Shown: piece after piece, positions 8,901 to 25,500 of the stretch
Layout of the letters: every line of letters starts with the position of its first letter
How positions within the stretch are numbered: the first letter of the stretch is position 1
Assembly: GCA_964364855.1 (NCBI GenBank)
Contig: CAYINU010000004.1
Location: 1-45,874 of the forward strand
Direction of reading: 5' to 3'
DNA length: 45,874 nt
Origin: an uncultured Candidatus Marinamargulisbacteria bacterium
GTDB taxonomy: Bacteria; Margulisbacteria; Marinamargulisbacteria; CAYINU01
Notes under the pieces: generated by a model
Databases searched by the model: none
Told to the model about the DNA's origin: nothing
What the model saw: only the letters and a program-made list of their open reading frames with translations
Translations under genes and position numbers: made by a program

Positions 8901-11900
8901 GGCGTCGAGCAAGAATTTATAGGTTCCCGCCAACCGGCCCAGACGCAGATCCGCTGCTTCATCGGTAGTCCCCGATTTCTGTCTTTCTTCGCGGTCTTTT
9001 TCGGCTTCTTCGAAATTTTTGACAATGCTAGTCAAGGCCATGAGGGCTATCGCCGCAAACTTCTGGCCCCAACCTTCATTTCCGCGGCCTGCATGATGAA
9101 TGGCCGTGGTCAAATGCGGCGCCTGGGTAAACATGCGGTTCAAGATATCTTGAGAGAAGGGATCCCCCTTTTTTACCAACTCCACGCCAAATTCGGTGAG
9201 GGCTTTGTCCACCTCGGTGGTCAGGGACTGCAACGCCGCAGTTTGTGGGGACAGCGGCCCTAGGGCTCCCTGCGCATCATTGAGCACATTCGAAAATCCC
9301 AGAACGTGATCCAAATTGAACTGATCGGGGGTTACATTTTGCAGGTCACGGATACGGTCCGAAAACCGGGCCAGGGCCGGATCTTGCGCCAGGTTAGACA
9401 ATCCGTCCAACCCGGATTGGTAGCTGGTCCACACCCGCTCACGAACCGCATCGGTACCCAGGTTCATCAAGTCCTCTTTGGTAATACTACTTATCGCCAG
9501 ACTTTGGATGGCTGAGGGTTGGGTGTTTAGCCATGGGTCAAAAGCAGCAAAAGCCTGATTTGGAGGGAATGCTTTCGAGAGGGCCGTGCGCAAGGCCCCA
9601 GCACCGGTCGGGGTTGCAGCCATCATTTCCTCTATCATCCGGTCGACAAAGTCCTGGGGTTGCAGTTGCTGACTGAGATTTTGCAGAATGTGATCCATTT
9701 GGGCCGGATTATGTTGATTTAAAATTTGGGCAATCGGGCCGAGAGCGCCACGAAGTTCGACAGAAGGTGGCTGTTCTGCAGACAGCTGAACACAGAAATT
9801 ACCAAAATTGTGAAGTGCTTGCCCTCCTACCGCAAGAGGCCTGGGGTCACCAAGCTCTCCCAGACGCTGGACCAGTTCACGAAGCGAGCCCGCATGTGTT
9901 TGTGGATCCGCAAGCCAACCCATAGCGGTTTGCGCAGCCATTCGCCGGTCCTGTAGGTCGGCAGGATCAAAAATATCGTCCAATACCCTGGCACCCGGCG
10001 ATAACCCAAGGTCATGCAAAGGCAGAACCTGCGGCCGCTGTGCCAAGGTACCCGTGGCATTAAACGCCGCTGTGTAAGGCGTGACCAATTTGGCAGGCAA
10101 GTGGCTCACCAATGCGCCCGTGGGATCGGCCAAGGGACCCAGCACCCGGGGCATAAATTGCCGCGAGGCCACCTCTGCCAGCAGACGGGGATCATGGTGT
10201 TGGATCGCATCCAAACCCGTTCGCAGTTCATTCAATTGATGGGCATCAAAGCGCGTTTCCATATCCCCTAACACCTGAGTCAGGACCGAGACCCGGGTCG
10301 TCGGTGGCAGACTGTCCAATACAGCCGTGGTTAACTCGCCATGGCCGGACTCTATCAACTGCCGGACCACCCGAACCTGACTGTTAGTCTGCAAAGACCC
10401 CATCATATGCCGGGCCACAGGGCTGCTGTTAAGGTGATCCGCCAAGCGTAAAACATCCGCTGCCGTCGGATATGCCCCCGTGACCAAGTCGTTTACAACT
10501 TTGGCATCTTTTACCGTGTTATATAGCAATTTCTCTAATTTACCCAAACCTCCCAATTGTTCGGGTGAAGCGCCATTTAGGGCACCAGTCGCAATGGCTC
10601 TTACTCTGTCGGGCTTAATATTCCCTGCGGCCGCAAGCGCTTGTACGCTGGGTAGCGCGAGAATATTGTCCACATCAAACTGGTTTGCAGCCAATGCCCT
10701 TCCAATCCCATCCCGAATCCCGAAAATCGAATTTGGGCCAGTGGCCGCGTCGAATGCCGCCTCGGCGTCTGGCTGACTGTCCAATAGTGTTTTGGAGCGT
10801 TTCATTAGATCCTCAGGTCTATCGAGGAGAGTATCAAACATCATCCGCCGCATGACGGACTGAGGTCCGGTTCTCACGCTGATGGCCTGGGTAACGAATC
10901 TGGCCGTCTGGAAATCGCGGACAATGTCGGTTACCGCCCCCCGTACCCACCCCGCGGAGCGGGCATCTAGCTTACTGGTGGCCGCCGTAATGGCCGCTTG
11001 TAGCTGGGGCATGGTGGATGCCGCCATGATCTGCTTTGCACTTTCCGCGGCACCGGTGGGGTCCCCCAACTGGGTCAGCATCTTCGCCAGCGCAGTTTGG
11101 ATGCGTTCTCCCTGCTCTTTAATCACTACCTTGGATCCCGTTACTGAATGAGCCCGATAGGCCCTGAGCTGCTCTTCGGTCATCCCGGCTCCAAACTGTC
11201 CCACTTTTTGTTGGAGTCTCCCCAGCGCCCCTTCAGCCTCAGTCAGCAGATGTTGTCCGGCCAGCCGAGCCTTCTGATTCCAATTCATCAATCGCATGTC
11301 CCGACCTGCACGCCCAAACTGGCCTACAGCACCGGGGGTGGCGGTGGAGGGATCCGAGACGATCGTTGCAAGGGGATTGAAAGCTCCCTCCCGGGGGAGC
11401 GGCTGCGCACCTTCATCGATGCGCTTGAGACAGTTTGCCAGACTGGCACTGCGTTCCCCCTCGTTGGCAAATCGCATCCCAGTCTGCAGCTCGGTCATCC
11501 GGCGTCGGAAGGTCGGATTTTGGGTCAGATCAATTCCGTTCTTGGATAAAAATGCCACCATATCCTTTAAATGCTTTTCAGGGACTTTAGCCCCGGCATA
11601 GACCATCATACTGATGTCATCGGCCAAGGCAGACCCCAACACGTGGTCTTTGGCCATAGTTGAAAGGCTATCGTAGGACAGGACTTTGTCGCCCTTCATG
11701 GCCTCCCTCGCCCGTTTGGCAACGTCGGAAAAATCCGTTCCGGTCGTCTTGCCCAGCGCGGAGAAATACCGATCGATTTCATCGGGGTTTTGGATCAGCG
11801 TGTCTATGTCAATGCCCAGTTTCTGGTTGGCTGCATCCATTTTGTCCGTCAAGCGTTTTGCGTTTTTCCCATAAAACGAATAGGTGCTTTTGTACAAGGT

Positions 11901-14900
11901 TTGGTGATCGTAAAGGACACGTTTATCAAACCCGGTTCGCCCCGTCATACCCCACATTTCCTGGCTCAATTGGCGCCAGTTGCTAAACTGACCCGGAATA
12001 CCCAGAAGGGTCTTGAGCTTGGTTTTAAATTGGTTTCTGCGAAAGGTGGTTTCGTAGTCTTTGGCGCGCTCCGCGGCTTCCATCAGACATCCCATGCGCA
12101 CCGGATCTGCCGCATGCATTTGGTCAAACGCATCTCGCACCCGCTCCACAATATCTGCATCGCCGCGCCCTGCCCATTTAAGCTTGCCGTAAATGGTGGT
12201 CGATCCCAACATATTCCACGCCAGGCCAGGCTTACGCATGGCCACCGACGCCTGGGGCATTTTTTCCATAAACCGCAACATGCCTTCGGCATCCAACTTG
12301 GTAACGCCATGGGCATCGGGGGGGGAGGTGAAGGCCTTGACCACCAGCTCCATTTTTCCCAACGGGCTGGAGTCATCTGCAGCCAGTACGTTGGCAGCCA
12401 GCTGGCGAATAGTGTCATCCGAGCTCCGCATCAGCTCGGCATACAGCCCGGTAATGCGGGCAGCGGATCCACCACCATCGCGTAAAGCTACCGTTTCACG
12501 ACGGGATACGGTGGCCATGATCTGAGCCAAATCTTTGGTGATGTTATTGATTTGGGCATCGGTGAAGCCCGTCATCAATGCGCTCAACTGCGACATCACC
12601 TGGGCACGGGTGGCCTCATTACCTTCGGACGCCAGGATGGCGACAAAAGATCCCGCCGTCGAAGAGGTGTAGTTTTGGAAAAAGTCGCTGAGAGGGGTAT
12701 TGAATCCGGACATATTCAGGAAGGCTACTTTTAACTGGCCTCTCAAACCGCTGGCTTGCAACGCGCCCTTTTCCTCGTCTGCCAAGATCTTCAATGCCTT
12801 TGCGTACGTTGTTTTTTCCTTCATAAACGCCACGAGCGCGGCCTGTTGGGCCTCTGAAGAAAGGCCTTCCAGATTGGGAAAGGCCGGTTCACCGTCCTGC
12901 AGCACTTTTGTCAGGGTCCGGCCGTCGCCCATATCCTTATTAAGTTTCGCCGATGCGTCGTAGTCTTTGGTGTCTGGGCGTTTTTGGACACGGGCCATAG
13001 CACGGTCGACAAGCCGTTTCCCCACGCCCCGGCCCACATTCTCACCCACTTTTACGCTTAAGCGGTCCGCATCCCAAGTTGCCGATGTCACGATACCGTG
13101 ACGGAGCGCGGCTCCGAAATTTTTTCTGCCCACCATCTTCTCGTTCATCACATTCCGCATAAAGCGCTGATAGTCATTCATCGCAGCTTGGAACGCCTCG
13201 GGGGTTTTTGCGGAAATGGCTTTTTCCAGTAGCTCCGTGGCCTTGTTATTCAACCACTCACCCTTGGGGGCTGCGCTACTGCCACCCTGCTTTTTGACCT
13301 GCCCCGCTAACTTTTCCAGAGCCGCTTTTATGGCATTGGCAAAAACAGAGATGTTTCCTGCGATCTTGGTCCAAAAATCCGTCATGGTATTTGCGTTTTG
13401 CGCTGCAAAAAGCGAGCGGTACCAAGAGGCCTCCATGGCACCCACCGCGATGGCCGCAGCTCCGGTAGGGGTAGCCGAAGCCCCCATCATGACGCCGATC
13501 TCCGCCCCGAATTGGGCCGCCCGTTGGCCATTACGGCGATACTGCTGGGCCGCCTCTTTTATTTTCTGGGTAAATACTTCATGCAGAATCGTTCTGACGA
13601 GGTCCTGGATCAGGGCCATCGTGACATTTACGATAATGGCCACCGCTCGCTTGGCCCGGCTGGCATGCCCCGCAGCAGTTGCCGATGGCGATGGCCCAGC
13701 CGCGGAGGGGGTGGTCGTCGTGGTGGCGGGTGCAGGCACGGCATCCGCTGCCACAGTGGTGGCTGTCGGCGTGCCATCCGCTGCCGCCACATCCGCTGCC
13801 ACGGTCTGTCCGGTAGACTCGACGCCCTTGGTGGATGTTTTGGCTGTAGCCGTCGATCCCGCACCCAAGGTCGCCATCTGGATAATAAACATAATAATGG
13901 CCACGACCAGCTCGATACCGGCCAAAACCGCGTCTCGCCGGCTGCTGTAGCGTTCGTTGGTAATACGGTTGATCAGTTCGTCCTTGGCCTGGATATTGGC
14001 AAACTGAAATTCCGAAACGCTTTGCTGGTACTTCACCATGTTGCTCAATACACCCATGGGCAAACCGGCCACGCCGCCCCCGGACAAAGCGCTCGCCACA
14101 TCCGTGATCATGGCAAGTACCGTCTCTACCGCCCGCAAAATGGCGGTTCGCACCAGTTGGTTATTGCGAATGGCGATCTTGGTAGCAGCCCAGTTTTCCC
14201 AGTTCATATTGACACCGGCAAATCCATTGGTGGAGTTGCCATACATCACACGGCGGTCGGACCGGTTTTCGTACAACGATCCGATTAAGCGAAAATCTTC
14301 CGTAACGTTACCGATAGCCGCACTGGCTGATTCAAAGAATCCATCTCCTGTGGGCGTATACACCGTTTGGGTAGAGGACCCATATACCGAACCCAAGGTC
14401 GTAGCATTGCTCTCTAGCGGGGCTATCGCCCACCCGTGAGTCCCGGAAAAGATGATATTCGAGAGCGGCTTGCCGATGGCAGAAGTCAGCATGAATCCGA
14501 ACAACATGTTGTAGTCCGAACGGGCATATTCCATGGACGCATTAAACTGCATATTGTTGAGTTCTCCACGATCCGTGGCCAACATCTTCATATAGCCGAG
14601 ACTTTCCATCCCCAGCTGACCGTGCCGCTCTACCGCGGCCTGGGCATAGTTTGCGGAGTCCAGTGACATCGTCGCCCGTCCTTTTACTTGCGCGGCAACT
14701 GACATGATCATGGAGGCAACATAGCTTTGTGCAAACGCGCGGGCAAATCGTCGCATCTGGATATCGGCCAAGCGTTTTGCCGCTTGATTGAAAAAGTCAT
14801 AGTCCACGCCCCCCGCGAGGTTCCCCCCCGTCGTACCCGCAGACGGGGCCACGCCGTCGCTAACACCCGGACGAATGACAGTGCCAGAGAGCCCGTAGGC

Positions 14901-17900
14901 AGAGTCCCCCGTCGCGATCAAGTCGCGGTTAGAGGCCTCCCGCAAGATGTTGAGTTCTTCCCATTGGTCATACAGGTCGGGTTGGGTTTGACGATTATAA
15001 GGGTTGGCTGCCGCCAACCCAAAATTCGAGCCTCCCAGGGCACCTGGGTTGCAGTTACCCGAAGAATAGGGGTTGTAGTTGTAGTTTTCCCGGATCGCAT
15101 TCGCAGGACCTGCCGTCTGGCCCACGCCAGGCCATAGGTTCCAAAAAGAGTTTCTAAATTGCACATTTTTTTGGTATCGGGTTTCGGCCACGCGGGTATT
15201 GGTACGATTGGCCCAAACCAACTGGTTCAGGTCAAAATTGACCAATTGCATCACGGTGCTGAGCATACCAAATCGTTCTTCGATAATGTCTTTTTCCTTG
15301 CCGCCCCACTCCGCTTTTTGACGTCCGGCCATATCGGCAGCAGCGGTGCGGATGGCATCTGCGATGAGCATCTGAACCATGACCCAGGATCGGATGGCCT
15401 CCTGAGCCAATTGCAGGCGGATGCGAATTTGCATTTGGCTATTGCGGTTGATGGATAGGCGGCCTCCTCCGACATTGATCATTTGATTCTCCAGGTTGAT
15501 CATGTCGTTCATTGCCGCTCGTTCAGCATTGAGGTTGCGGCGCAATTGACGCTCCGCATGGGTTAGCCCCGGTGCATTTTCATCCAACGCCGGAACCCCA
15601 TATCCCGCATTGAGCAGTTGCTGGTAGTTGGCCTGATTCAATTGATCCGGGGCAGCTTCTTGGGCCGTGCCGTTCGCCAAATCCCGGCTGCGGGCAGACT
15701 CCCCGATGCCAAATAACCCCGCCACAAAACCACACACAATGGCGATAACACCCACAACGGCAGCGGCTACCGCACCCACTCCCGACATCGCCAACCCCGC
15801 AGCAACAATACCCAGCACTAAAGCAATAGCATTAAAAATGCTTTGGAAAGCCCGCAGGATCCGCCGTCCCAAGTCTTGGAGCTGATGAAGTTCTATTTCC
15901 ATACTCTTGATGGTATTTCGAAGGCTCATTTCAGTTTGGGAATAGGTTTGTACCTTGCTCAGCCAGGTTTGCTCGAGGTTCATGCGGGCTTGCTCAAACG
16001 AATAGGCGGCCATTCCGACCTTTTTGCCGGATGTGACTTTCCGGCCTGTGCCCGCCGCATCAGCCAGCTCCTGGGCCGCACCTTCGATCGTCGTGATCAA
16101 AATTTCTTGAACCATAAACCAGGCTTTGCGATGCTCGTTCATGATTTGAATGGATTGACGGGTATTGGCAAACAAGCCTGAATTGAATCGGTTGTACCCT
16201 GCACTACTGCCCGCGGTGGTATCCACATGGCCATCGGCCGAGAAAACGGCATTCGTTCGGATTTGGTCTCGGGCGGACTGTTGATTGATCGTGCCTGTCT
16301 GATTAAAGGCACCGCCCAAATTGTTGGCTTGGCTGCCGTCAGCCAGATATTCGGCGCCCAGCATCTGGATGCGGGTGTTGGTCACGGACCGGCGGTTGGT
16401 TTGCACGATATTGGCATAGGCCGTCGTGGCAGCAATCTTCTCCATTTGTTTTTGAATTTTATCTTCATCCGCTAGCCAAATGTCTTTGCATGCCGAATTC
16501 ATGCCGGAGTGGGCTTCTTCAATCTCCTCCATCGCCTCGCGGTATTCGGCCTCGTTGTAATCGTCGATGGCCTGGACAAAAAGATCCTGCATTTGGCCAC
16601 TGGTCTCACTGACTTTGCTGGTATATTCACCAAACTTTTCTTGGACCTTTTTGCGCGCAGCCGAATGACCTTCCCCATACACACCGGTCATGTCGAAAGC
16701 CGATTTTTCGATAATATCGGCGACCAGATACGCAATCGACATAAACGTGGTCAAAATCTGCATCTGCATCAAGATGCGCTGATAGTCGGTTTGGATGCGG
16801 TCATAGTTTAAAAGGCGGTACCGGGTATTTCCTGAAGCAGGCGCGTAACTCCAATAGGGGCTGTTGGTGTTTTCGGTGTTGAGATTATTAAAGTAATTGT
16901 TAATGTTGGTCTGGAGGTTGCCAAACGAATTGGCCCCGGAAAACATGGCTGCCTCGATTTGCCGGAGCAGCGGAGGAGTCGTATTTTGCGAGGCAGTCGA
17001 AAAGCCGAGCAAGTCGTTTTGAGAGATGCCATCGCCCAAAACGGTGCCGTTGACCGAATAGGTGAAATAGAGCCGATACAGGCTGGATACGGTGGGTGCC
17101 GGCGCCTCGCTGACAGAGCCAATGACTTGACCCGTGGTCAAGTCCAGCGCGTGCACATTCCCTTGCGAATCGGTGTAGTTCAAGACGGTATGGCCCACTC
17201 CGGTATTCGTATTCAGATAAGCGGCCACCGAAACACGGCCTGCCGCCTCGGGGCCCAAGGCCGCAGCTGCCAGGCTGGCAGCCAGATTGGTCAGATCCTC
17301 GCAGTCGCCACCGCCCCGCAAAATCGTTTCTGCCGCAGTCGACCAATGGTCTTGGGCGTCGGCTTGGTATTGAAAATGGCTGACGACGTGATTGTAAATG
17401 GCCGTCATGATCTGGTCTTCGGTCAGGCCCATCATGCCGTTGGGAGGTGGGAAAATCTCCTGCAACAGAGACACCACAGCCGGGTCATCGGGATCGATAA
17501 ACGTATGGGATTGGGTGAAATCGATAGCCGGGGGTGGCAGGACCAAATTGGAAACCACATCCTGAAATCGGATGGTAGTGGAACCCGCCAAATTGGGCCG
17601 GGAGAGTGCAGTCGGTAACGTGCTGGTATCGATATAAGACGCCGCGGAAAACGGCACCACATTTCCGTTAAGGTTCACCGTTAGGACTTGTCCGTCTTGT
17701 AATTGAACCTGGATGCCCTGCTCGACTTGTCCGAAGTGGGTAACCCCCGAGAACAACTGAGACCCGGCAATCGTCCCGTCCAGCCGAAGCCGTTCGGCCA
17801 CTTGCGCCTGCAGATCCCGAATCTGAGTGGGCGTGAGCTGACCACGCAGGGCTTGGACCGACTGGAATGCCCGCCCCAAAATCCCCGCCGGGGTGGTATC

Positions 17901-18197
17901 GCCCGAAGCATGGGCTTGATTGACGATGACAGTGACAAAGGAGGCCAGAGAAGGGGCATGGCTTGATGCCTGCAGCGCCGAATTGGCAATGGACTGATTT
18001 TGTGCCGTGGCCGCTGAGGGGGTATCCAAAACCAAAGCCCCCACCTTAACCGTTCCAGTAATTGCGCCGTCTTCTTCGTCAACCAGATAGCCATGATCCC
18101 CGTCAGACAGCTTGCCCACTGCCTGGGTCGCCCGCGATACCATGTCGGCTATCGTGCGGTTGGCGATGGTGTCTCGAAACGAATTGATGTCCGCCAA
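2913..18197 (-). CDS. giant 5094-aa multidomain protein: transglutaminase-like (BTLCP/LapG-type) Cys protease + five translocator-like repeats + ~3400 aa unassigned helical region
   Basis: Uninterrupted 15.3 kb ORF; TTG start preceded by AAAGGGGA. Motifs DHWSTAAETILRGGGDCEDL, GHTVLNY and VHALDL give a Cys299/His336/Asp352 triad. Hydrophobic segments at aa ~787-832 and ~1423-1446. No Sec signal peptide seen. The CDS is secure; the translocator call is inference. Confidence 0.9.
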   Translation of the reverse strand: MADINSFRDTIANRTIADMVSRATQAVGKLSDGDHGYLVDEEDGAITGTVKVGALVLDTPSAATAQNQSIANSALQASSHAPSLASFVTVIVNQAHASGDTTPAGILGRAFQSVQALRGQLTPTQIRDLQAQVAERLRLDGTIAGSQLFSGVTHFGQVEQGIQVQLQDGQVLTVNLNGNVVPFSAASYIDTSTLPTALSRPNLAGSTTIRFQDVVSNLVLPPPAIDFTQSHTFIDPDDPAVVSLLQEIFPPPNGMMGLTEDQIMTAIYNHVVSHFQYQADAQDHWSTAAETILRGGGDCEDLTNLAASLAAAALGPEAAGRVSVAAYLNTNTGVGHTVLNYTDSQGNVHALDLTTGQVIGSVSEAPAPTVSSLYRLYFTYSVNGTVLGDGISQNDLLGFSTASQNTTPPLLRQIEAAMFSGANSFGNLQTNINNYFNNLNTENTNSPYWSYAPASGNTRYRLLNYDRIQTDYQRILMQMQILTTFMSIAYLVADIIEKSAFDMTGVYGEGHSAARKKVQEKFGEYTSKVSETSGQMQDLFVQAIDDYNEAEYREAMEEIEEAHSGMNSACKDIWLADEDKIQKQMEKIAATTAYANIVQTNRRSVTNTRIQMLGAEYLADGSQANNLGGAFNQTGTINQQSARDQIRTNAVFSADGHVDTTAGSSAGYNRFNSGLFANTRQSIQIMNEHRKAWFMVQEILITTIEGAAQELADAAGTGRKVTSGKKVGMAAYSFEQARMNLEQTWLSKVQTYSQTEMSLRNTIKSMEIELHQLQDLGRRILRAFQSIFNAIALVLGIVAAGLAMSGVGAVAAAVVGVIAIVCGFVAGLFGIGESARSRDLANGTAQEAAPDQLNQANYQQLLNAGYGVPALDENAPGLTHAERQLRRNLNAERAAMNDMINLENQMINVGGGRLSINRNSQMQIRIRLQLAQEAIRSWVMVQMLIADAIRTAAADMAGRQKAEWGGKEKDIIEERFGMLSTVMQLVNFDLNQLVWANRTNTRVAETRYQKNVQFRNSFWNLWPGVGQTAGPANAIRENYNYNPYSSGNCNPGALGGSNFGLAAANPYNRQTQPDLYDQWEELNILREASNRDLIATGDSAYGLSGTVIRPGVSDGVAPSAGTTGGNLAGGVDYDFFNQAAKRLADIQMRRFARAFAQSYVASMIMSVAAQVKGRATMSLDSANYAQAAVERHGQLGMESLGYMKMLATDRGELNNMQFNASMEYARSDYNMLFGFMLTSAIGKPLSNIIFSGTHGWAIAPLESNATTLGSVYGSSTQTVYTPTGDGFFESASAAIGNVTEDFRLIGSLYENRSDRRVMYGNSTNGFAGVNMNWENWAATKIAIRNNQLVRTAILRAVETVLAMITDVASALSGGGVAGLPMGVLSNMVKYQQSVSEFQFANIQAKDELINRITNERYSSRRDAVLAGIELVVAIIMFIIQMATLGAGSTATAKTSTKGVESTGQTVAADVAAADGTPTATTVAADAVPAPATTTTTPSAAGPSPSATAAGHASRAKRAVAIIVNVTMALIQDLVRTILHEVFTQKIKEAAQQYRRNGQRAAQFGAEIGVMMGASATPTGAAAIAVGAMEASWYRSLFAAQNANTMTDFWTKIAGNISVFANAIKAALEKLAGQVKKQGGSSAAPKGEWLNNKATELLEKAISAKTPEAFQAAMNDYQRFMRNVMNEKMVGRKNFGAALRHGIVTSATWDADRLSVKVGENVGRGVGKRLVDRAMARVQKRPDTKDYDASAKLNKDMGDGRTLTKVLQDGEPAFPNLEGLSSEAQQAALVAFMKEKTTYAKALKILADEEKGALQASGLRGQLKVAFLNMSGFNTPLSDFFQNYTSSTAGSFVAILASEGNEATRAQVMSQLSALMTGFTDAQINNITKDLAQIMATVSRRETVALRDGGGSAARITGLYAELMRSSDDTIRQLAANVLAADDSSPLGKMELVVKAFTSPPDAHGVTKLDAEGMLRFMEKMPQASVAMRKPGLAWNMLGSTTIYGKLKWAGRGDADIVERVRDAFDQMHAADPVRMGCLMEAAERAKDYETTFRRNQFKTKLKTLLGIPGQFSNWRQLSQEMWGMTGRTGFDKRVLYDHQTLYKSTYSFYGKNAKRLTDKMDAANQKLGIDIDTLIQNPDEIDRYFSALGKTTGTDFSDVAKRAREAMKGDKVLSYDSLSTMAKDHVLGSALADDISMMVYAGAKVPEKHLKDMVAFLSKNGIDLTQNPTFRRRMTELQTGMRFANEGERSASLANCLKRIDEGAQPLPREGAFNPLATIVSDPSTATPGAVGQFGRAGRDMRLMNWNQKARLAGQHLLTEAEGALGRLQQKVGQFGAGMTEEQLRAYRAHSVTGSKVVIKEQGERIQTALAKMLTQLGDPTGAAESAKQIMAASTMPQLQAAITAATSKLDARSAGWVRGAVTDIVRDFQTARFVTQAISVRTGPQSVMRRMMFDTLLDRPEDLMKRSKTLLDSQPDAEAAFDAATGPNSIFGIRDGIGRALAANQFDVDNILALPSVQALAAAGNIKPDRVRAIATGALNGASPEQLGGLGKLEKLLYNTVKDAKVVNDLVTGAYPTAADVLRLADHLNSSPVARHMMGSLQTNSQVRVVRQLIESGHGELTTAVLDSLPPTTRVSVLTQVLGDMETRFDAHQLNELRTGLDAIQHHDPRLLAEVASRQFMPRVLGPLADPTGALVSHLPAKLVTPYTAAFNATGTLAQRPQVLPLHDLGLSPGARVLDDIFDPADLQDRRMAAQTAMGWLADPQTHAGSLRELVQRLGELGDPRPLAVGGQALHNFGNFCVQLSAEQPPSVELRGALGPIAQILNQHNPAQMDHILQNLSQQLQPQDFVDRMIEEMMAATPTGAGALRTALSKAFPPNQAFAAFDPWLNTQPSAIQSLAISSITKEDLMNLGTDAVRERVWTSYQSGLDGLSNLAQDPALARFSDRIRDLQNVTPDQFNLDHVLGFSNVLNDAQGALGPLSPQTAALQSLTTEVDKALTEFGVELVKKGDPFSQDILNRMFTQAPHLTTAIHHAGRGNEGWGQKFAAIALMALTSIVKNFEEAEKDREERQKSGTTDEAADLRLGRLAGTYKFLLDAIRQSPPANLAVPQLLQPHEDRLNRVQDLRLRGEMEALLNTSRAGLAQVQAGLQPYTNELATFNALITDLYNAPATVNRDYYSGALMELDQSPLSPDMKTALSGFLTNRMKAFTTVDSLPVFQQINLGSPVLQGAIQEWVSTATEDDFLAGIQNNDAVLAYAIDHHLDRLAKLPLSGLIPVVQHAIRAEMQDALAKKWIQLAASETGQQQASGLLNMLGCWIANDRGGVSRTCNPEDLRSALSQLIPRANEWSLGAFLRVNVGQNTNLVDELVPQLFRERPRVLDRFFADPDMAVVDQNSILDRLTTLVTQPDAAQLSQLSDATVGLVLKRAWGKRAEHPGAFHKLLEAALQRPEVIAPFVSELPLDNLPMVLDFLGESTKTDESVRKGIYRLLDRMKTDDQFMPLLRQLMADPQIGPQMDPVLNDYPELLLGLSGLVPAIQPEDALLVGKLKDALQNADARERMITAFANTSDPRVLSNFLNVVGGIDEDFARTALTRLALDHPDVMVRLAWSLPKDGDARMDWAANAIQTCLVDPQTNWTVHQQLQLVGVLLGMDTHAFPQTGDYRNAVQQIQNWIVEHAAPSAGTEGAWQRYRPLIEAWQQSGHGKGALRQDLQRIADYMDVFQIQPNRNTLRKTLSDMAKDTRRFQDVIEMVGRSRWAAAPENVSFLSLLANHLQTEGEDRPNHPLQKVLAQVNVLAQVVAARALMLDLQLGTQQLDVALSQLAFGKPIQDLSELTKSLSDHVLKLQGDVKSAHIHKQDASVPHTAYQAFQALQAQVFHQRAAAAVREGSPLARTGTVDEQQRQSDINALARFRSPEELQAINVGVLRQFLSVFHPPLAQPVTPTAKQIIDAVDALPNNVSLSDHILQPTDINLLLPQLAAVPNSGLAIVGTYDPADIPDVMRQKLVCISVLSAMGQPLQNIDYDKLNGADFDGYLRSLNGNKNPADLYLKALKPTNSMVLNEELIERWLTTIMTRPTPISRKAAFEVPEELTKFLSDLYTRDPRAAEEIVVNMGRRMYDPDHLHGSLLKEGKVSLVLMPMTVAFHRVLMALSRKGDMSGSAALQHEVDLHRDYVVERYGSLFAKLPPDGPTRQKQIHTMQKLLDRFVELGDDRLTERILSEFEFHDVHVAHRVRLDAQIANWVTDFSRFITTDGLQYYRPEEMDAEAQLLGGAVGRAYLQLSLTDRQYVAKKLLDKCNAELQKAAKEASGDKATLADKARVQMLLGKFASLVRQTYVNDATLLSSGEQDRSGIQTLVQQAIIAASELPAGSLNDLAIASLGQMLAVSEMDFGQYPGLLERLASRLQVHGLGVLRESLIKEGARRAVQQLDMGLRQVVHRGNASHDVSQVTLAVSKAVSARETDEEILVPLLMQSGDDQVQVLEGLMGSDLRALTRVWQALTQSRDANARRLQGAFLTAVVADPALLKDLFLYMKSDDVARDGLLTVMRQLLTEQKELAAHQAALGAGQAQHPIPVTPLSTAAADYLSGHDRTTFVNTQNLTNGQDVLAKLIRGVFDFALADSQADPLGNEWMTHFLQSLAGVRESTPGLDPVQTRKAISYIFENCPDLFFHPAFNTDTDNYWAKMMSRNFFAPALRAPISPGKKHLGTPLNSMAGATMNGGFPPLLTRLIDEAKKNTDKRNHLFGLIRYVLLEEKQKYLTKNAILFKEQLINELAEHHPAFYLEFLSSSVLKPDKDEPDLLLGVSHELYSESQRDRMAELLLSAPPNTPGLQPGTPTLNLDEEKRAKCLAHLMIGNSADEPLIESRVRRYYDILARILARPNADAEAPDRFVRAVLAMQSILGQEPFQRVVLPKLNLLKADLINRGMSASVEGQWAAVELVHGIPTVNIADPQEVADVLRPTLSFLTSNQKQEAYLNAFLLEYARHQTPAQAEAVLRELRTMTGSPLLPGVGEDVQAAFRQEISHSARMAAYGQSTAVRRSPLDQVIATYKQKLTGLSAIERIERFETFFKQLHETVHRITSPVSVKVPGS

Positions 18198-19987: not shown

Positions 19988-22900
19988 TCAATACATCGGT
20001 CCGCGGGAATACATCGGTCGGAGGGCAGTCGCAGCAGGCTGGCTCCGAATTCCGATAGAGATGTAATATTTCTGTAACAACTCCATCCCCGGATACTCCG
20101 GCAACCTTCCTGGGATATCTGGTTTCCAATCTCCGCTGACAAGGTAAGATTTAAGATTCGCCAGCTGACGGTCCGAAGCCCGGGTATCCATGGCCTCCAA
20201 GGTCGCACCGACCCGCGCTATTACGCCTTGTTCCCAGTCGCGCACTGCCGGCGCCTTCAAGTCGGAGCCATCCGGCAAAGGAATACCCGCTTCCTGCATT
20301 GTGCGTAGGGCATACGTCAGGCGGTCAATATTATTGCAAAAGCTCATATGTTGGGGCACCTGCAGCCGCGCAACACGCAGATGGGCTTCCATTTCCGCCA
20401 TCATTTCCGCGCGCTGTTGGGCTATTTGTCTCTCGAACGCTTGAAGGTCGGTCTCCCGCTGTTGCTGCAATGCGGCCAATTGGGTTCGGAGATCGGCATT
20501 TTCTGTTTGTAGTCTAGCGTTTTCCGGTCGGAGTACGTCATTTTCTTCCCTGACCGGTCTCAGCTGTGCTTGACTCTCAGTCAGCTCTCTTTGAAGTCTT
20601 TCAAGGGTCTGTTGTAATGCCTCGTTTTGTTGTTGTGCAGCTGCTAATACTTTGTCAATTCGTTGCTGCGCAGCCCGGGCATCGGTAAGTTGTTGTGTCA
20701 ATTGGTCTCTCTCTTTCTCCGACGCCCGCAAGCGAACTGCAAGATCCGCGTTGGTGGTGTCCACATCCGTTAACCGGCGTACCGCTGTTTCCGCTGCTTG
20801 CAGCTTGTCAGTTTGCTCAGCCATTTGCTGTTTCAAATCAGCCAGTTCAACAGCAGCCTTATTCGCAGCGGCCTCAGCTGCTGCGTGTTGCTGTTCCAGC
20901 TCGCGCTGATGTTGGGCAGCGGTCGTATCTTTTTCTTGTACTAACTGTTCAAGGTGGACAGAAAGGTCTTTAGCCTGCTGTTCCGCTGCACGTTGGGCTT
21001 GTACGACTTCCCGAATTCGTCCGTTCAAGGCTTCGTTGTCACTCCGCACAGTGGCACTATCATTTCGAGCTGTGGCCAATTCCCTTTGAAGTAGCGCCAA
21101 AGTATGTCCAGCAGAAGCGGCTGTTGCCCGCGCGGCTGCCCGCTGCATAACGAACCGTGCATTTTCTGTTGCAGATCTGGCAGCCTGCGCCTGTACTGCT
21201 ACAACTTGTTCGGCAATAACGCTATATCTCACTTCTCTCTCTTCGATTTCAACTTGAAGCTCGTTAATTTGCCTGTGATATTCTTGCTGTTGGGTTTGCA
21301 CTGTCTCCTCTAGTTTAGTAGCCCGTCCCCTCGCTTGATCCACTTGCTCTCTGACGCCCTCAAGCGCTGCCAGTTTAGCTTGAAGCACTCTTATTTCGTC
21401 GTGTTTGCCACTCAGTTCGTTCCGTATTCGATCCAAATCTTCTTGCAGAGCCTTAATGGTTTGGTGAGCTTTATCAAGTTGCTGGGCTATCTGCAGCGTC
21501 TGCCAGTCCGTTTGGACCCCAACATCTGCCAGCGTTAATCCCCCATCTCTTTTGGGAGAGAAGTCTGCATCTCGCAGCTCGTCCCCAAGAGATGCGCCTG
21601 AGGTATCTACCTCAGGCCGCTGGTCTGCAGCTTGCGCTTCAGCCCATTGCCTTTCAAGGGCTGCTTGAAACTGCTGTGCTAGTGTGACTTTCACCTGGGC
21701 CTCTTCCAACCGATGTTGCAACTCCGTTACTTGTTCCTTGAACAGAAGCGCCGATTCAAGTTCTCTGGTTAGTTTGTTAACTGCCTCTTCAAAGTTGCTC
21801 GCTTTCGATATCAACTGTGCATGTTTAAGTTCTAAATCGCGCAGCCGGCTATTAGACTTCCTCAACTCCTCCGAAAGGCTATCCCTCTCCCTCTCGGTTC
21901 CTTTAAGTCTGGCCAGAAGCGCACCCTCTCTCTGCTGTGCCTCCCGCCGCGGAGTCAGCACTTGTTGGCGAAGCTCGTCTATTCCCAGTTCACGTTCGCG
22001 TAGCAATTGAGTGCTGTCGGCCAGCCTACGTACCAAGGCTTCGTTTTCACGTCTACTCGCCACAATTAGAGCCGCTTGTTCTTGGACCTGAGCCTGAACC
22101 TCTTCCAAATTGATCTCAGTGTTCGCGACGAGCTTCTCCATCTGTTGGAGGGTTCTCCGAAGGGCTGTTACTGTTTTTTCAGCTGTCTCCGCCCTTTCGG
22201 TCAATGTGGCGTTGGCGGCCTTTTCATCTTCTAGCGCTCGTACTACCCGTTCCAAGTCACTAAAGACAACCTGTGCTTCTTGAAGGCCCTCTTCTAACGC
22301 CGCATTACGATCACGCAGTTTCTGACTTCTAGTTTCTACTTCCTCAACATGCTGTTTCGCAACCGTTACAACTTTCATGATCAGCTCACGGATCACGTCC
22401 GGGTTTACACCGGTCTCTCTGGCAAGCGCAGAGATGGCGGCCTCGGTCCCATCATTAACACTGCTGGGTTCCTGCTCCTCTTCCCATGCAAGCCGAGTCG
22501 ATGGTCTCTGTGATGCAATCTGCTCGGCTATCGTTTTGCCATCGGGCAACGACACTTGTTCCAAAAGCCTTTTTTGTATCAAAGCCTGCCTCATTAACCC
22601 ATCACGTTCATCTAACTCGGCTTGATAATGGGCTGCTCCAATCTGTCCTATCAAGGCTCGACATAAGGTTGTTCTCTCACCGGGAATTCCCAAATCGGTA
22701 GGATATTGCGTCATGAGATCATTAAGTATTTCCAGCCGTTCGGTAGAAGATTGACGTTTCTTATTGTCAAGTACCTCCCCGAGGTTCCGTCTAAATTCGT
22801 CATTATCCCGCTTGGCATTTTTCATATGAGCCAAAAGACGGTTGACAGTACCAAGCTCCGCTATGAGCATCTCCGCTAGCTTATTAGCCGTGCTAACTCC

Positions 22901-23161
22901 TGCTTTTCGAAGTATTTCCTGAGCCATGGTAACAGGATCGAATGTTCCCTTTTGACATGCCTCCCATACTAGTTGCGCATAGCGTTCCAAATTCTGATCC
23001 ATTTCCTGTCTGATTTTTCTTCCATCTTCTGTAAGGTAAGGGGATGTAGTACCCGATACGGTCCTGGCCACCGGCTCCGAAAGAGAAAGTGCCCCACTCC
23101 CGATGATGAGGGGTGCATTTAATGGATTTAATGGAGAAGAAACTGCCATTCGTCTTAGCAT
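19988..23161 (-). CDS. long coiled-coil protein, 1057 aa (candidate secreted effector or tether)
   Basis: ATG preceded by AAGGGG; Ser/Pro-rich N-terminus; E/Q/L/A/R heptad-rich from ~aa 260 to 940. No Walker A motif, so not SMC. Confidence 0.85.
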   Translation of the reverse strand: MLRRMAVSSPLNPLNAPLIIGSGALSLSEPVARTVSGTTSPYLTEDGRKIRQEMDQNLERYAQLVWEACQKGTFDPVTMAQEILRKAGVSTANKLAEMLIAELGTVNRLLAHMKNAKRDNDEFRRNLGEVLDNKKRQSSTERLEILNDLMTQYPTDLGIPGERTTLCRALIGQIGAAHYQAELDERDGLMRQALIQKRLLEQVSLPDGKTIAEQIASQRPSTRLAWEEEQEPSSVNDGTEAAISALARETGVNPDVIRELIMKVVTVAKQHVEEVETRSQKLRDRNAALEEGLQEAQVVFSDLERVVRALEDEKAANATLTERAETAEKTVTALRRTLQQMEKLVANTEINLEEVQAQVQEQAALIVASRRENEALVRRLADSTQLLRERELGIDELRQQVLTPRREAQQREGALLARLKGTERERDSLSEELRKSNSRLRDLELKHAQLISKASNFEEAVNKLTRELESALLFKEQVTELQHRLEEAQVKVTLAQQFQAALERQWAEAQAADQRPEVDTSGASLGDELRDADFSPKRDGGLTLADVGVQTDWQTLQIAQQLDKAHQTIKALQEDLDRIRNELSGKHDEIRVLQAKLAALEGVREQVDQARGRATKLEETVQTQQQEYHRQINELQVEIEEREVRYSVIAEQVVAVQAQAARSATENARFVMQRAAARATAASAGHTLALLQRELATARNDSATVRSDNEALNGRIREVVQAQRAAEQQAKDLSVHLEQLVQEKDTTAAQHQRELEQQHAAAEAAANKAAVELADLKQQMAEQTDKLQAAETAVRRLTDVDTTNADLAVRLRASEKERDQLTQQLTDARAAQQRIDKVLAAAQQQNEALQQTLERLQRELTESQAQLRPVREENDVLRPENARLQTENADLRTQLAALQQQRETDLQAFERQIAQQRAEMMAEMEAHLRVARLQVPQHMSFCNNIDRLTYALRTMQEAGIPLPDGSDLKAPAVRDWEQGVIARVGATLEAMDTRASDRQLANLKSYLVSGDWKPDIPGRLPEYPGMELLQKYYISIGIRSQPAATALRPMYSRGPMY

Positions 23162-23260: not shown

Positions 23261-24310
23261 CTAGGCTTCGGAGACGGGCGAAAAGAAGTCGAAAATCGCC
23301 GCCCAATAGTCCGGTGCTTTCACGCGGTTGAGGGGTTCCACCCACCGGTACACCAGATTGGACGCACTTTCCCGCTTGATCTCGGCCTCCTTGCCCAGGT
23401 TATGGACCAAAAATAAAATCAATAAACCATTGACCGTTGCGATGTCCGGCACAGCTGCCACCGCCATCAGTCGGGGCAAGGACCGTTCGTGCCACGCACG
23501 GATAGCCGCATGCACGGCCGGCCATTGCGGTGTGCCATAGGCGGCATCAGACCCCAGCCATAACACAATAAACAACGCATAAAAATAGTCAAATAACGGC
23601 GGTTGATCGACCTGGTAGTCTTCCCAGTCCATCACCACGATAGCGTCTTGGTTCCACCCGATATTGTAGGGGTTGAAATCCCCGTGCAGGCCGGCCAGCG
23701 GCACCTGGGCGGACACGACCTGGGCCAAATCTGCCCGAAAGGCCTCATACACCTTTTGCAAAATGTCGGTCACATAGGCCGAGTTGGGAGATACGCGGGC
23801 AAATATGCCTTCGGTCCAGGCGGTAAAAACCGCGGCATCCAGCCGCCCACTCCCTCGCGACCGCTGGGTCCAGCGTACCAGCCATTCCGTCACGCGGTCG
23901 GCACGTGCGGCATCAAACTGGCCGGTTTTGGCCTCCTGGGTAATCTGCTGGTACCAATGGATATGCGGCAGGTAGGACGCCACCACCCAGAGCCGGCTAT
24001 CGGCATAAAACATGCCCAGGGGTCGGGCCACAGTATCGCCCAGGCCCATTTCCCGGGCCTGTCGGAGGGCATGGACCTCGTTTTGCAGGCTGGCCTGGGC
24101 CACCGCTGAGGCAGTCTGACCAAATTTCATGACGGCCACTGGCCGGTCGTGATCACAAACGGTCAGAACCAGGCACCGGTGGGAGGATTCTTTGCGAATT
24201 TCATTGAGAAAAAACCCCATATCGGCAGGCCAGGTGAGTTCCACCTCTGCCGCATGGGCGCGCAGGATGGCTTCGATTTCGGGCATTTTTTGGACCGGTC
24301 TATCCGTCAT
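23261..24310 (-). CDS. aminoglycoside phosphotransferase/choline kinase-like (APH family) phosphotransferase, ~349 aa
   Basis: VAVMK, NEVHAL, Brenner motif HGDFNPYNI and metal-binding VMDWE. Start re-called to ATG 24310 (overlaps the upstream stop); the track start of 24547 lies deep inside the upstream gene. Confidence 0.8.
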   Translation of the reverse strand: MTDRPVQKMPEIEAILRAHAAEVELTWPADMGFFLNEIRKESSHRCLVLTVCDHDRPVAVMKFGQTASAVAQASLQNEVHALRQAREMGLGDTVARPLGMFYADSRLWVVASYLPHIHWYQQITQEAKTGQFDAARADRVTEWLVRWTQRSRGSGRLDAAVFTAWTEGIFARVSPNSAYVTDILQKVYEAFRADLAQVVSAQVPLAGLHGDFNPYNIGWNQDAIVVMDWEDYQVDQPPLFDYFYALFIVLWLGSDAAYGTPQWPAVHAAIRAWHERSLPRLMAVAAVPDIATVNGLLILFLVHNLGKEAEIKRESASNLVYRWVEPLNRVKAPDYWAAIFDFFSPVSEA

Positions 24311-25172
24311 GGCGTTTTCGGTGGAGGCCGCCACCCTGGCAGACGTGGTTAAACCAAAACAGGCATTGATCACAGGCCAAAAATGACGGCACCACAAACC
24401 GCAATTGCGCCTCTCGGTCTGCCAGCATCCGCCGCGCCAGTTGCGGGGTGGGAAACGAGCTACGATCCCAACGTTCGGTAAACGCGGGGTCCCAATGGGC
24501 AAGTTTGCCATCCGGCAGTATCCGGAACCACCCACCCTCGCCCACAAACCGAAACACGGTTCCCGATGCGTTCAGCACGTCCAGCTGGTCGGTATTAAAT
24601 TGACACATCACCACCAGGTCCTCGATCACGGTTTTGTACCCCGCTCCAAAGGCCACGGATACCAAGTTGATGATCGCGGGGGTGAGGGCCTTCAGGCCGG
24701 TCAATGACTTATCTTGGGCCACCCGGACGCGTAAGACGGGATACAGCTTCAACTCCCGCAACAGCGGCAGAAGGTAAATGAAGTTTTCTGCGGGATCATC
24801 CAAGGTCACGGAGAGCGTAACCCGGGTATACCGTTTTTCGGAAAAGGTTCGCAAATGGGACTCCAGAGCCTCCCAGGCCGCCTCCGAATACCGCTGTGGA
24901 TTTTGAAGCAACACCTCGGTTTCGGAAAAGGTTCGCATGATCACCTGCCGCAATTCAGGCCGAAAGAGGCCGTTGGTGCGCAAAATGGCATAGCGCCGCG
25001 GCGAAATCAGCTGCTCGCACAGCTGGATAACAGCGGGGTTTTGGGTGGGCTCTACCCCTTCAATGACAAGCTGAATTGACGGCGGTATCCAGGTCAAGTC
25101 GTCCGCAAACGTCTGAGGAGAAAGTTGGCGGTATCGCGAGCCGTCTTGGTCATTCCAGACGATAGCGATCAT
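24300..25172 (-). CDS. degenerate radical SAM/SPASM-like protein, 290 aa
   Basis: GVEPTQNP (cf. GGEPxL), LRTNGL, ILPDGK and a SPASM-like CDQCLFWFNHVCQGGG; the N-terminal CxxxCxxC is absent. Confidence 0.65.
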   Translation of the reverse strand: MIAIVWNDQDGSRYRQLSPQTFADDLTWIPPSIQLVIEGVEPTQNPAVIQLCEQLISPRRYAILRTNGLFRPELRQVIMRTFSETEVLLQNPQRYSEAAWEALESHLRTFSEKRYTRVTLSVTLDDPAENFIYLLPLLRELKLYPVLRVRVAQDKSLTGLKALTPAIINLVSVAFGAGYKTVIEDLVVMCQFNTDQLDVLNASGTVFRFVGEGGWFRILPDGKLAHWDPAFTERWDRSSFPTPQLARRMLADREAQLRFVVPSFLACDQCLFWFNHVCQGGGLHRKRHDG

Positions 25173-25500
25173 CGTTGCGAATGGTTTCCAAAAAAGTCGC
25201 GGTTTTTCCCAACAATTGCCCTGCGACTTCCAGCAGGATGATTTGATCCTCTCTGGGCTGGGCCAAGAGGGTCCGAAAATCCGCGTCCAGCCGCGTCAGA
25301 TCGTCATGATAATGTTGCAGTTCGTGCTTTAACGCGGCATAGGCCGTGCGCTGCGGCTCGGGCAGGGGATGTTGCACGATGTGGGATACACTGGCCTGAA
25401 ATTCGGCCACCACGCGGCGGTACTTGTCCACCGTCTCCATCGTGGACCGGATCAAGCCTGCAATCCGGTCGACCACGTCCCGAGAGATCGTCTCGCCCAT
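25150..25500 (-). CDS. small helical-bundle/coiled-coil protein, 116 aa
   Basis: TAATG overlap with the hook-like gene; amphipathic helices. Size is chaperone-like (inference only). Confidence 0.7.
   Translation of the reverse strand: MGETISRDVVDRIAGLIRSTMETVDKYRRVVAEFQASVSHIVQHPLPEPQRTAYAALKHELQHYHDDLTRLDADFRTLLAQPREDQIILLEVAGQLLGKTATFLETIRNDDRYRLE

Follow-up and report, generated by a model that had tools for sequence, protein, structure and literature searches.

Among the described systems closest to the one examined here is LapG, a secreted stand-alone enzyme of ~200 amino acids (aa) that is held by LapD, a receptor for cyclic di-GMP (c-di-GMP), and that cuts the type I secreted adhesin LapA in trans (PMC4359373, PMC3032545; here and below, published work is cited from excerpts). 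DvhG of Desulfovibrio vulgaris shares 33% core identity with LapG and has the same catalytic triad, calcium motif, and [T/A/P]AAG specificity (PMC13090378). DvhG keeps these features at such a low level of identity, which shows that the chemistry of the BTLCP family survives both large divergence and the addition of further parts. Herein we examine a related domain that is built into a protein of 5,094 aa, encoded on contig CAYINU010000004.1 of an uncultured Candidatus Marinamargulisbacteria bacterium (assembly GCA_964364855.1). The whole stretch of 45,874 nucleotides is called the window, and the protein is called the giant. The domain that it carries is very probably related to the BTLCPs, with its active site intact.

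Several uncultured phyla, Margulisbacteria included, are distinguished by very large proteins, and how such proteins are made, exported, and used is almost uncharted. Margulisbacteria are named among the phyla rich in very large genes in a recent preprint (10.1101/2023.11.21.568195), which also reports Omnitrophota giants whose N-terminal C39 or S8 peptidase domains are proposed to self-cleave; the word "transglutaminase" occurs 0 times in the accessible text of that preprint. Another described arrangement is that of polymorphic toxins of the PVC-metallopeptidase type, in which a conserved N-terminal releasing peptidase is followed by a highly variable remainder (PMC3482391, Zhang et al. 2012). 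In the full-text literature, whose coverage leaves out most subscription journals, we found no published description of an intact BTLCP-type domain in giants of Margulisbacteria or of other organisms.

The explanation that we favor, though tentatively and with somewhat less than even confidence, is that aa ~217-407 of the giant form a catalytically competent, divergent BTLCP-type endopeptidase that would process its own chain, within a Margulisbacteria-wide family of giant, mostly helical, membrane-associated proteins.

A LapG-related domain near the N-terminus of a giant protein

The giant, its protease domain, and the predicted catalytic residues lie at the following positions of the window, with residue numbers (C299, H336, D352, and so on) counted from the TTG start.

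2913-18197, minus strand: giant open reading frame (ORF), 5,094 aa from the TTG start
16977-17549, minus strand: BTLCP/LapG-like transglutaminase-fold cysteine protease domain, aa 217-407, by family hidden Markov model (HMM) match (envelope 210-424)
17295-17309, minus strand: G297-D298-C299-E300-D301, predicted nucleophile with flanking acidic residues (BTLCP calcium-site motif), without exception among 22 giants and among 12 true C93 proteins
17301-17303, minus strand: codon of Cys299, the predicted nucleophile, at the first residue of model helix 85-100
17190-17192, minus strand: codon of His336, in model strand 121-128
17142-17144, minus strand: codon of Asp352, directly after model strand 134-137

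The record of the giant in the protein collection begins 18 residues later, at an ATG (codon 19), which yields 5,076 aa.

The original prediction, made from the letters of the window, had proposed an intact LapG/BTLCP-like Cys-His-Asp domain fused near the N-terminus of the giant. Its motifs are found as described, with DHWSTAAETILRGGGDCED at aa 283-301 (17295-17351), GHTVL at aa 335-339 (17181-17195), and ALD at aa 350-352 (17142-17150), and the positions given for C299, H336, and D352 are correct in the minus-strand translation when numbered from the TTG. The fusion is equally evident, given that the domain occupies aa 217-407 of a 5,094-aa chain, and the word "intact" is justified by a triad that matches that of LapG residue for residue and is kept across relatives. 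The proposed span of 17040-17530 (aa ~224-386) is about right, but slightly short at its C-terminal end when compared with the HMM match. Likewise, the proposed kinship holds in the sense that LapG and the BTLCPs are the closest characterized relatives, but strict membership in Peptidase_C93 or in the LapG equivalog, as defined by curated thresholds, does not.

This second point is seen in the HMM comparison that had been suggested as a check. Peptidase_C93 (PF06035, gathering cut-off 27 bits) gives no match to aa 1-500 at E <= 1, and no match appears anywhere in the organism's own genome at E <= 1e-3. Transglut_core (PF01841, cut-off 23) scores 19.9 bits with E 9.5e-4 and covers aa 263-312 only. 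The sole NCBIfam match is to CystProtLapG (NF045674), with 19.6 bits and E 4e-4 against a cut-off of 320, and it extends over positions 89-152 of the 221 in the model. The PF06035 cut-off is reached, however, by several more distant members of the set of relatives and by a stand-alone protein from this phylum. Because many relatives clear the PF01841 cut-off, the clade can be said to straddle the border between PF01841 and PF06035.

Searches against solved structures return LapG. A phmmer comparison of aa 215-410 with all PDB sequences at E <= 10 produced two matches, both of them LapG (4fgo_A with E 1e-4 and 4u65_E with E 0.019), and in these alignments the Cys, His, and Asp fall residue for residue on the LapG triad. 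A profile of 19 close relatives, none of which has a C93 match (profile A2), placed LapG structures in ranks 1 and 2 (E 2.2e-5 and 1.1e-4), followed by the Cytophaga transglutaminase-like protease 3isr (E 0.016). The E value of 4.7e-22 obtained with an earlier profile (A1) is discounted because that profile contained true C93 proteins. When a profile of 22 giants (A3) was compared by hhalign with a profile of 12 true Peptidase_C93 proteins (A4, whose members have PF06035 scores of 38-88 bits), the two aligned over 121 columns with a probability of 99.2% and E 2.1e-19.

The AlphaFold2 model of aa 215-410, computed from a 37-row alignment, has a mean predicted local distance difference test (pLDDT) score of 90.4 and a predicted TM-score (pTM) of 0.87. 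Foldseek found nine matches to this model at E <= 1e-3, and the six top chains are all LapG, with 4FGO first (E 4.8e-7 to 1.5e-5, TM 0.50-0.55). VIA-align, which is independent of Foldseek, also ranked LapG first (Z 11.8 over 139 residues, root-mean-square deviation 3.5). It listed 20 chains at Z >= 8, all of which are transglutaminase-fold or related papain-clan proteins as read from their titles. Included are the pseudomurein endoisopeptidases PeiW and PeiP (Z 9.1 and 9.0) and the animal transglutaminases TG2, TG3, and factor XIII (Z 8.9-9.5, identity 10-11%).

As modeled, the domain certainly has a transglutaminase-like fold, and there is good support for its homology to the BTLCPs. By sequence, its nearest characterized relative is the LapG family, though by fold LapG is not unique in this respect. 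Because the window sequence passes no curated cut-off, the domain is best placed in a divergent sister clade, outside LapG proper.

The active site and a predicted calcium site

In the model, the Cys stands at the start of a helix and the His and Asp lie on neighboring strands, in the triad order Cys-His-Asp. The strand that bears the His is the next but one, and the Asp comes immediately behind the strand that succeeds it. A Cys on a helix with His and Asp on strands is the canonical arrangement of papain-like and transglutaminase-like enzymes. Among the query and 150 relatives, the Cys is present in 150 of 151 sequences, the His in 142, and the Asp in 120, with Glu in its place in a further 14. 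The residues that flank the nucleophile are kept to a similar degree in the same set (D in 149, E in 143, and the second D in 146). In the N-terminal regions of 22 giants from different genomes, Y277, W285, G297, D298, C299, E300, D301, H336, and D352 are all invariant. Such invariance of both the triad and the calcium motif is the signature expected of selection on catalysis.

The acidic residues D280, D283, D298, E300, and D301 are the counterparts of C93 residues D99, D107, D122, E124, and D125, which are invariant or nearly so in the 12 proteins compared. D298, E300, and D301 would form the core of the predicted calcium site, to which D280 and D283 would also belong. One or two calcium ions are bound beside the triad in LapG (PMC4359373), and in DvhG, calcium-dependent cleavage is abolished either by C317A or by D316A/E318A, which alter the residues flanking C317 (PMC13090378). 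The domain of the giant is probably a calcium-dependent hydrolase as well.

A strain variant recovered from an independent metagenome run bears on the same residues. In the domain region it carries 12 base changes in 11 codons, which result in five residue changes (aa 349, 359, 362, 366, and 370). None of these five changes affects a catalytic or calcium-site residue.

A family of giants in Margulisbacteria

A search of 1.84 billion representative sequences returned 168 relatives of the domain at E <= 1e-3, including 58 at E <= 1e-10. Among the 150 sequences that were kept, 50 exceed a length of 1,500 aa and 11 exceed 5,000 aa, and many of the shorter ones may be fragments cut at contig ends. 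The close relatives are weak matches to Transglut_core, and genuine Peptidase_C93 proteins occur only among the distant matches (E ~1e-4).

Within the phylum of the window, matches at E <= 1e-5 were obtained in 73 of 146 species genomes (in 33 of 72 when only high-quality genomes are counted). Many of these matches lie within open frames of 2,000-7,733 aa, and a single genome can have up to five. The holders consist of 43 of the 55 genomes of the window's class plus 30 genomes of families f29-f39, and by row count none of the 58 genomes of families f40-f50 has one. The position of the domain is equally consistent. In 31 of 31 loci examined, the catalytic Cys is reached 161-526 residues after the frame's first start codon.

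A scan of bacteria and archaea with one genome per species found 164 relatives, and the best 80 of these are almost entirely headed by Candidatus Margulisbacteria. Marinamargulisbacteria, Riflemargulisbacteria, Termititenax aidoneus, and Termititenax persephonae are among these best 80 of 164; elsewhere, only short and weak matches occur. Judging from these distributions, fusion of the domain into giants is a lineage trait of the phylum.

Outside the domain, the giant of the window resembles only four of the 150 relatives (P0019, P0016, P0056, and P0049), and this resemblance is confined to aa ~430-1,400. BLAST and phmmer searches showed nothing among the 150 relatives that matches the first 214 residues or the last ~3,500 (beyond aa ~1,420), although the phmmer output might be incomplete for the C-terminal part. 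Because the body outside the domain matches so few relatives, the protease domain is the sole conserved element of a fast-diverging family.

Anatomy of the giant and leads on self-processing

Several further features of the giant are relevant to how it might be exported and processed.

18000-18143, minus strand: N-terminal ~48 residues after the ATG, predicted to be disordered (residues 1-48 of the AlphaFold2 model of aa 19-470 have pLDDT < 50)
16989-17003, minus strand: F399-S-T401-A402-S403, a clade-specific [F/L]-x-T-A-[G/S/A] motif found by alignment where the domain borders on the C-terminal part of the chain; candidate self-cleavage site
15678-15830, minus strand: strongly hydrophobic region, aa ~790-840, of sufficient length for a membrane hairpin of two helices (highest Kyte-Doolittle value 2.71, aa 807-825)
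13875-13931, minus strand: second hydrophobic segment, aa 1423-1441, from the hydropathy scan

Between the disordered N-terminus and the protease domain, the AlphaFold2 model places a moderately confident helical bundle and then a small beta region. The hydropathy scan found no Sec-type hydrophobic segment before aa 475, and the N-termini of 21 related giants, as read from their sequences, are likewise polar. The segment at aa 1423-1441 is followed by a linker rich in Ala, Thr, and Pro, which contains one of the two TAAG-type motifs of the chain (aa 1507). When the giant was compared with Pfam in five pieces, no family was reported at E <= 0.001 besides the weak Transglut_core match, and this includes RTX, Ig-like, and RHS repeats as well as cell-wall-binding domains. 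BLAST of aa 411-1650 against itself revealed no internal repeats, and no second copy of the protease domain was found in this giant, even with the HMMER filters off.

The T-A motif at the edge of the domain is one indirect lead on self-processing. Among the 60 closest sequences, the T is present in 42 (with S in seven more) and the A in 36 (with S in 12 more). Among 15 true stand-alone C93 proteins, the corresponding counts are two of 15 and one of 15. In the model of aa 19-470, confidence is about 50 at the motif block (aa 399-408) and lower than 50 at model residues 386-395 (aa 404-413). In [T/A/P]-A-A-G, the bond that LapG and DvhG cleave is the one joining the two alanines (PMC13090378), and because the motif of this clade resembles that site, it seems reasonable to speculate that it is a site of self-cleavage.

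Another lead comes from relatives with more than one copy of the domain, of which there are 26 among 149 (including P0005, P0008, P0011, P0012, P0014, P0016, P0023, P0030, and P0031). In P0005, P0008, P0016, P0031, and P0012, a second intact copy is located 680-2,100 residues downstream of the first. When second copies were examined in these five proteins and in the tandem copy of P0007, T-A-[S/T/G] was found again after four of the six. Intact protease copies that are spaced in this manner suggest a possible polyprotein layout. The architecture, in which a hypervariable body comes after a conserved peptidase at the N-terminus, is a further indirect lead, and the self-cleavage proposed for Omnitrophota giants points the same way. 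On these grounds, self-processing of the giant is plausible, and it is possible, if still somewhat doubtful, that the giant itself is the physiological substrate of its protease domain.

Two further observations concern the giant gene itself. A 219-aa ORF on the plus strand (16959-17618) lies wholly within the gene, antisense to the protease domain, and is taken to be a spurious antisense by-product. An origin from phage was also considered and set aside, given that neither the first 500 aa nor aa 411-1600 has a PHROG match, and that eight of nine neighboring genes have none either; the sole PHROG match, for the remaining neighbor, is to a family of unknown function (E 4.9e-4).

Competing explanations for the role of the domain

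If the giant processes itself, the events might proceed as follows. The lack of a Sec signal together with the disordered N-terminus suggests that the protein would leave the cytoplasm by a non-Sec route. The protease domain would be idle at the low calcium concentration of the cytoplasm and would become active once folded in a location where calcium is available. It might then cut its own chain or sister chains, with T401-A402 at its own C-terminal edge as the best candidate site, and this cleavage would detach the N-terminal module from the variable parts and from those that insert into the membrane. Such a protein would amount to a fusion of the protease-substrate pair of LapG and LapA into one polypeptide that acts as a "releasing peptidase".

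Several facts weigh against this proposal. The window sequence falls under every curated threshold (PF06035, PF01841, and NF045674), and by fold alone LapG is tied with 3kd4, a putative protease from Parabacteroides (Z 11.7), and with axonemal transglutaminase-like proteins (Z 11.0). Cleavage motifs of the LapG type are present in the chain at chance level rather than enriched: two [T/A/P]AAG motifs occur (aa 1507 and 2522) versus 1.17 expected, and 166 of 500 shuffles reach two. The T-A motif is short, is conserved to about 60-70% in the close clade, and could equally be structural. Among the 26 multi-copy proteins, 10 have a degenerate copy that lacks G-D-C-E-D directly behind the active one, and self-cleavage leaves these copies unexplained. 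Stand-alone versions of ~380 aa occur in the same phylum, so that action in trans is clearly possible for the clade. Finally, if the N-terminus were cytoplasmic, a calcium-dependent enzyme would see little calcium there.

Action on targets other than the giant is nearly as likely as self-processing. The domain might be an active protease that works in trans on partner, prey, or host proteins, on the cell's own surface proteins, or on peptide cross-links of the cell wall, with the giant serving for delivery or positioning and the domain as its leading enzymatic head. We regard this as a serious possibility, though one we would not call probable. LapG and DvhG, which are the characterized BTLCPs, both act in trans, and one of the stand-alone clade members of ~380 aa in this phylum passes the Peptidase_C93 cut-off with 31.3 bits. 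The presence of PeiW and PeiP among the structural neighbors would suit an enzyme that cuts cell walls, but Pfam detects no cell-wall-binding domain in the giant. Transglutaminase-type domains are known as toxin heads of secreted effectors and RTX toxins; however, such heads are typically C-terminal in polymorphic toxins (PMC3482391), whereas the protease domain of the giant is N-terminal and the membrane segments come after it. Tandem or repeated domain copies fit an effector role as well as they fit a processing role, and the named relatives include Candidatus Termititenax. Termititenax bacteria reportedly live attached to other cells. On the other side, no target is known, and the T-A motif at the domain edge would have no role if the protease acts in trans. 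Cross-linking, which the original prediction had allowed as another chemistry for the domain, is less likely because the nucleophile motif is the calcium-site motif of the BTLCPs and the characterized BTLCPs are hydrolases. A true transglutaminase or deamidase that links the giant to a surface or to itself, or that modifies a glutamine of some target, would be consistent with the fold, which is common to TG2, TG3, and factor XIII (Z 8.9-9.5), with Transglut_core as the sole Pfam match, and with the report that such domains may cross-link or polyaminate (PMC3482391, Zhang et al.). Yet the context of the nucleophile is the G-D-C-E-D motif common to hydrolases, sequence searches return LapG rather than transglutaminases, and the animal enzymes show only 10-11% identity in structural alignment, and we therefore consider this explanation quite unlikely.

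Two further explanations would deny the domain either its activity or its place in the giant. It is marginally less likely still that the domain is a catalytically dead module for peptide binding or anchoring, as proposed for the inactive N-terminal transglutaminase domains of RHS-type polymorphic toxins. The 10 relatives with a degenerate second copy that lacks the nucleophile would be in keeping with such a role, but the published inactive domains have lost triad residues, whereas here the triad and calcium motif are invariant in 22 of 22 giants, the Cys is kept in 150 of 151 sequences, and none of the five residue changes in aa 347-374 among strain variants (independent run) is catalytic. 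The giant might also be nothing other than an ordinary LapG orthologue that an error of gene calling or assembly has merged with a neighboring Lap-type adhesin gene, of the kind secreted by a type I system and controlled by LapD. Although LapG tops every comparison with solved structures, this explanation is highly improbable. The frame is open over 5,094 codons, DNA contigs from two further runs (two studies) cover each of the gene's 30 bins and show neither insertions nor deletions nor joints, and the same fusion is present in 31 of 31 loci examined. CystProtLapG scores 19.6 bits versus a cut-off of 320, and the genome is without a Peptidase_C93 match. RTX repeats are typical of Lap-type adhesins, and Pfam reports none in the giant. 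In addition, the scanned neighboring genes include no components of type I secretion, and the sole ABC-type ATPase among them adjoins an LptF/LptG permease.

The self-processing explanation, if correct, would have consequences beyond this window. The single conserved element of this family of giants is a protease domain from a family that cuts giant surface proteins near their N-terminus and that responds to calcium. If this domain cuts its own chain, then the giants would be polyproteins, and their size would be a packaging device rather than a functional unit.

Gene neighborhood and a possible export route

The gene of the giant stands tenth in a run of co-directional genes, most of them unannotatable, which extends from ~33.0 kb down to the start of the window. 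Three of its members recur near related giants.

25500-26387, minus strand: FlgG/FlgE-family axial (rod/hook-type) protein, 295 aa (PDB FlgG 8z5u, E 1.8e-10 over residues 11-288, and Pfam matches)
26400-28208, minus strand: unnamed neighbor, 602 aa, recurring in seven of 31 other loci (six by tblastn and L032 by blastp)
29319-30296, minus strand: unnamed neighbor, 325 aa, recurring in five of 31 other loci (tblastn)

The FlgG-family gene is located 7.3 kb upstream of the giant. By tblastn, an FlgG-like gene is present in nine of 31 other loci (L001, L014, L017, L018, L020, L022, L023, L024, and L032), the 31 loci being L001-L032 without L008. Its distance from the 5' end of the related giant is about 1-13 kb, and it occurs in both orientations, co-directional or divergent. 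Synteny between the FlgG cluster and giants is seen among kin. The 602-aa and 325-aa proteins match no Pfam family at E <= 0.01.

Other genes of the run are noted for completeness. A family-2 glycosyltransferase with a C-terminal TPR match (28201-29322, minus strand) is situated between the 325-aa and 602-aa genes. An APH-type phosphotransferase-like ORF (Pfam APH, E 4.4e-7) and a 290-aa ORF without a family overlap by ~250 bases (23261-24547 and 24300-25172, minus strand). A 1,057-aa ORF (19988-23161) initially gave a match to FliD_C (21224-21580, minus strand), which we rejected: its 21.8 bits are below the cut-off of 25.4, and Pfam hmmscan, PDB, and Atlas searches failed to reproduce it. 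The Atlas search with this upstream protein yields only coiled-coil look-alikes, and the protein looks like a long coiled coil.

The genome to which the window belongs is 94.5% complete and has FlhA, FliF, FliN-type proteins, rod proteins, and three secretins, but no match at E <= 1e-3 to the flagellin N or C domain or to FliG_C. The same pattern is seen at the level of the phylum, where FlhA is found in 135 of 146 genomes and Flagellin_N in 15 of 146, and flagellin occurs in one of the 55 genomes of the window's class. The holders of flagellin belong mainly to families f31-f34, in genomes with two or three FlhA matches. Most of the phylum therefore appears to keep a flagellum-type export apparatus without a recognizable filament protein, and because it does, export of the giants by a type III-type route is conceivable, although this does not count as evidence for it. 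The co-occurrence of giants and FlhA is uninformative in this regard, given how few genomes of the phylum lack FlhA (135 of 146 have it). In families f40-f50, FlhA is present in 56 of 58 genomes and the giant domain in none of 58 (row counts). An Atlas search with aa 411-1600 gave a best score of 0.80, a level that shuffled proteins often reach, with the type III translocon families IpaB/SctE/SseC at 0.76-0.78, so translocon-like features in this region are a weak hint that lies within the range of noise.

Perhaps the giants are cargo of a flagellin-less, flagellum-derived type III apparatus. The disordered N-terminus would serve as the export signal, and the protease domain would emerge first, be activated by extracellular calcium, and cut at the T-A motif, at two places in the case of giants with two copies. 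The products would be a head for anchoring or enzymatic action, a translocator-like piece that inserts into the membrane, and a helical, rapidly evolving cargo directed at partner cells. This proposal is unlikely as a whole. If true, it would represent a new secretion-and-processing system that brings together parts from the flagellum, from the control of Lap-type adhesins, and from polymorphic toxins.

A stand-alone member of the clade, 378 aa in length, is also found beside flagellar genes. It is encoded at locus L040 (10336-11472, minus strand; G058:C1) and passes the Peptidase_C93 cut-off with 31.3 bits. Its gene is located just upstream of an flhA-flhF-flhG-fliA cluster, with an HD-domain gene on the opposite strand between them, and the adjacency is present in six close-kin genomes (with equivalents in G059-G062 and G065). 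We considered this pairing of a stand-alone BTLCP-like gene with a second flhA (six genomes, f32/f33) as a link to type III export and rejected it, given that the annotated locus is an ordinary flagellar cluster and the genomes are close kin.

Strain differences and RNA-library contigs

Clustered strain differences within the gene of the giant are seen in contigs from other runs on groundwater and aquifers, at 17076-17157, 15327-15390, 14088-14119, 13863-13995, and 14553-14632. In addition, short contigs from two metatranscriptome libraries of a single study match the gene at an identity of at least 95%, with eight of 10 at 99% or higher. These contigs are located at 16859-17046, 17390-17548, and 17721-18055 and at six other short pieces, and three are inside or next to the protease domain. 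The RNA-library contigs, which leave most of the gene uncovered, are compatible with transcription but do not prove it.

Comparison with known systems

The domain of the giant shares with LapG, as represented by 4FGO from Legionella pneumophila and 4U65 from Pseudomonas fluorescens (MEROPS C93), a transglutaminase-like fold, an aligned triad, and the G-D-C-E-D motif, as well as an upstream block of the form Y-x-x-D...D-x-W...E-T. Both are tied to a giant protein at its N-terminal region, where LapG acts and where the domain of the window resides. The differences are also substantial. The domain is built into the giant, is without a Sec signal, and is below the family thresholds, and the giant has no RTX or Ig-like repeats in Pfam. 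Moreover, the calcium loop is shorter, reading Y-Q-A-D-A-Q-D-H-W here versus Y-E-T-D-P-I-T-G-A-S-D-D-Y-W in LapG. No LapD-type receptor or type I transporter appeared among the scanned neighboring genes, though no search aimed at LapD was made.

Polymorphic toxins with releasing peptidases resemble the giant in their layout of a conserved N-terminal peptidase and a variable body, and some polymorphic toxins also have a transglutaminase-fold domain at the N-terminus of very long secreted proteins (PMC3482391). These N-terminal transglutaminase domains, however, are described as inactive and are located behind a signal peptide and before RHS repeats (PMC3482391). In the giant of the window, by contrast, all three triad residues are present, a signal peptide is lacking, and Pfam reports no RHS repeats.

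Large toxins of the MARTX and clostridial types have an internal caspase-like cysteine protease that is activated by inositol hexakisphosphate at the destination and that cuts its own chain. The analogy with the giant is one of logic only. The fold, the activator (calcium is proposed here), and the position of the protease all differ.

The Omnitrophota giants are similar to that of the window in having a peptidase near the N-terminus of a membrane-associated protein of several thousand residues from an uncultured lineage. Their peptidases, as described in the preprint, are C39 or subtilisin domains instead of BTLCPs, and those giants carry many recognizable enzyme domains, whereas the protease is the only one recognized here. 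Self-cleavage of the Margulisbacteria giant, if true, would bear on the question that was raised for the Omnitrophota proteins (10.1101/2023.11.21.568195).

DvhG, a BTLCP, resembles the domain of the giant in having the triad and the calcium motif as well as additional sequence on the N-terminal side (PMC13090378). It differs in that it is a separate protein with separate adhesin substrates and is controlled through a c-di-GMP receptor (PMC13090378). An intact BTLCP-type domain inside a giant is, accordingly, a departure from the stand-alone periplasmic LapG and DvhG systems as they are portrayed in PMC4359373 and PMC13090378. If the giant does cleave itself, this would indicate that a protease-substrate relationship of the LapG type can be collapsed into one gene.

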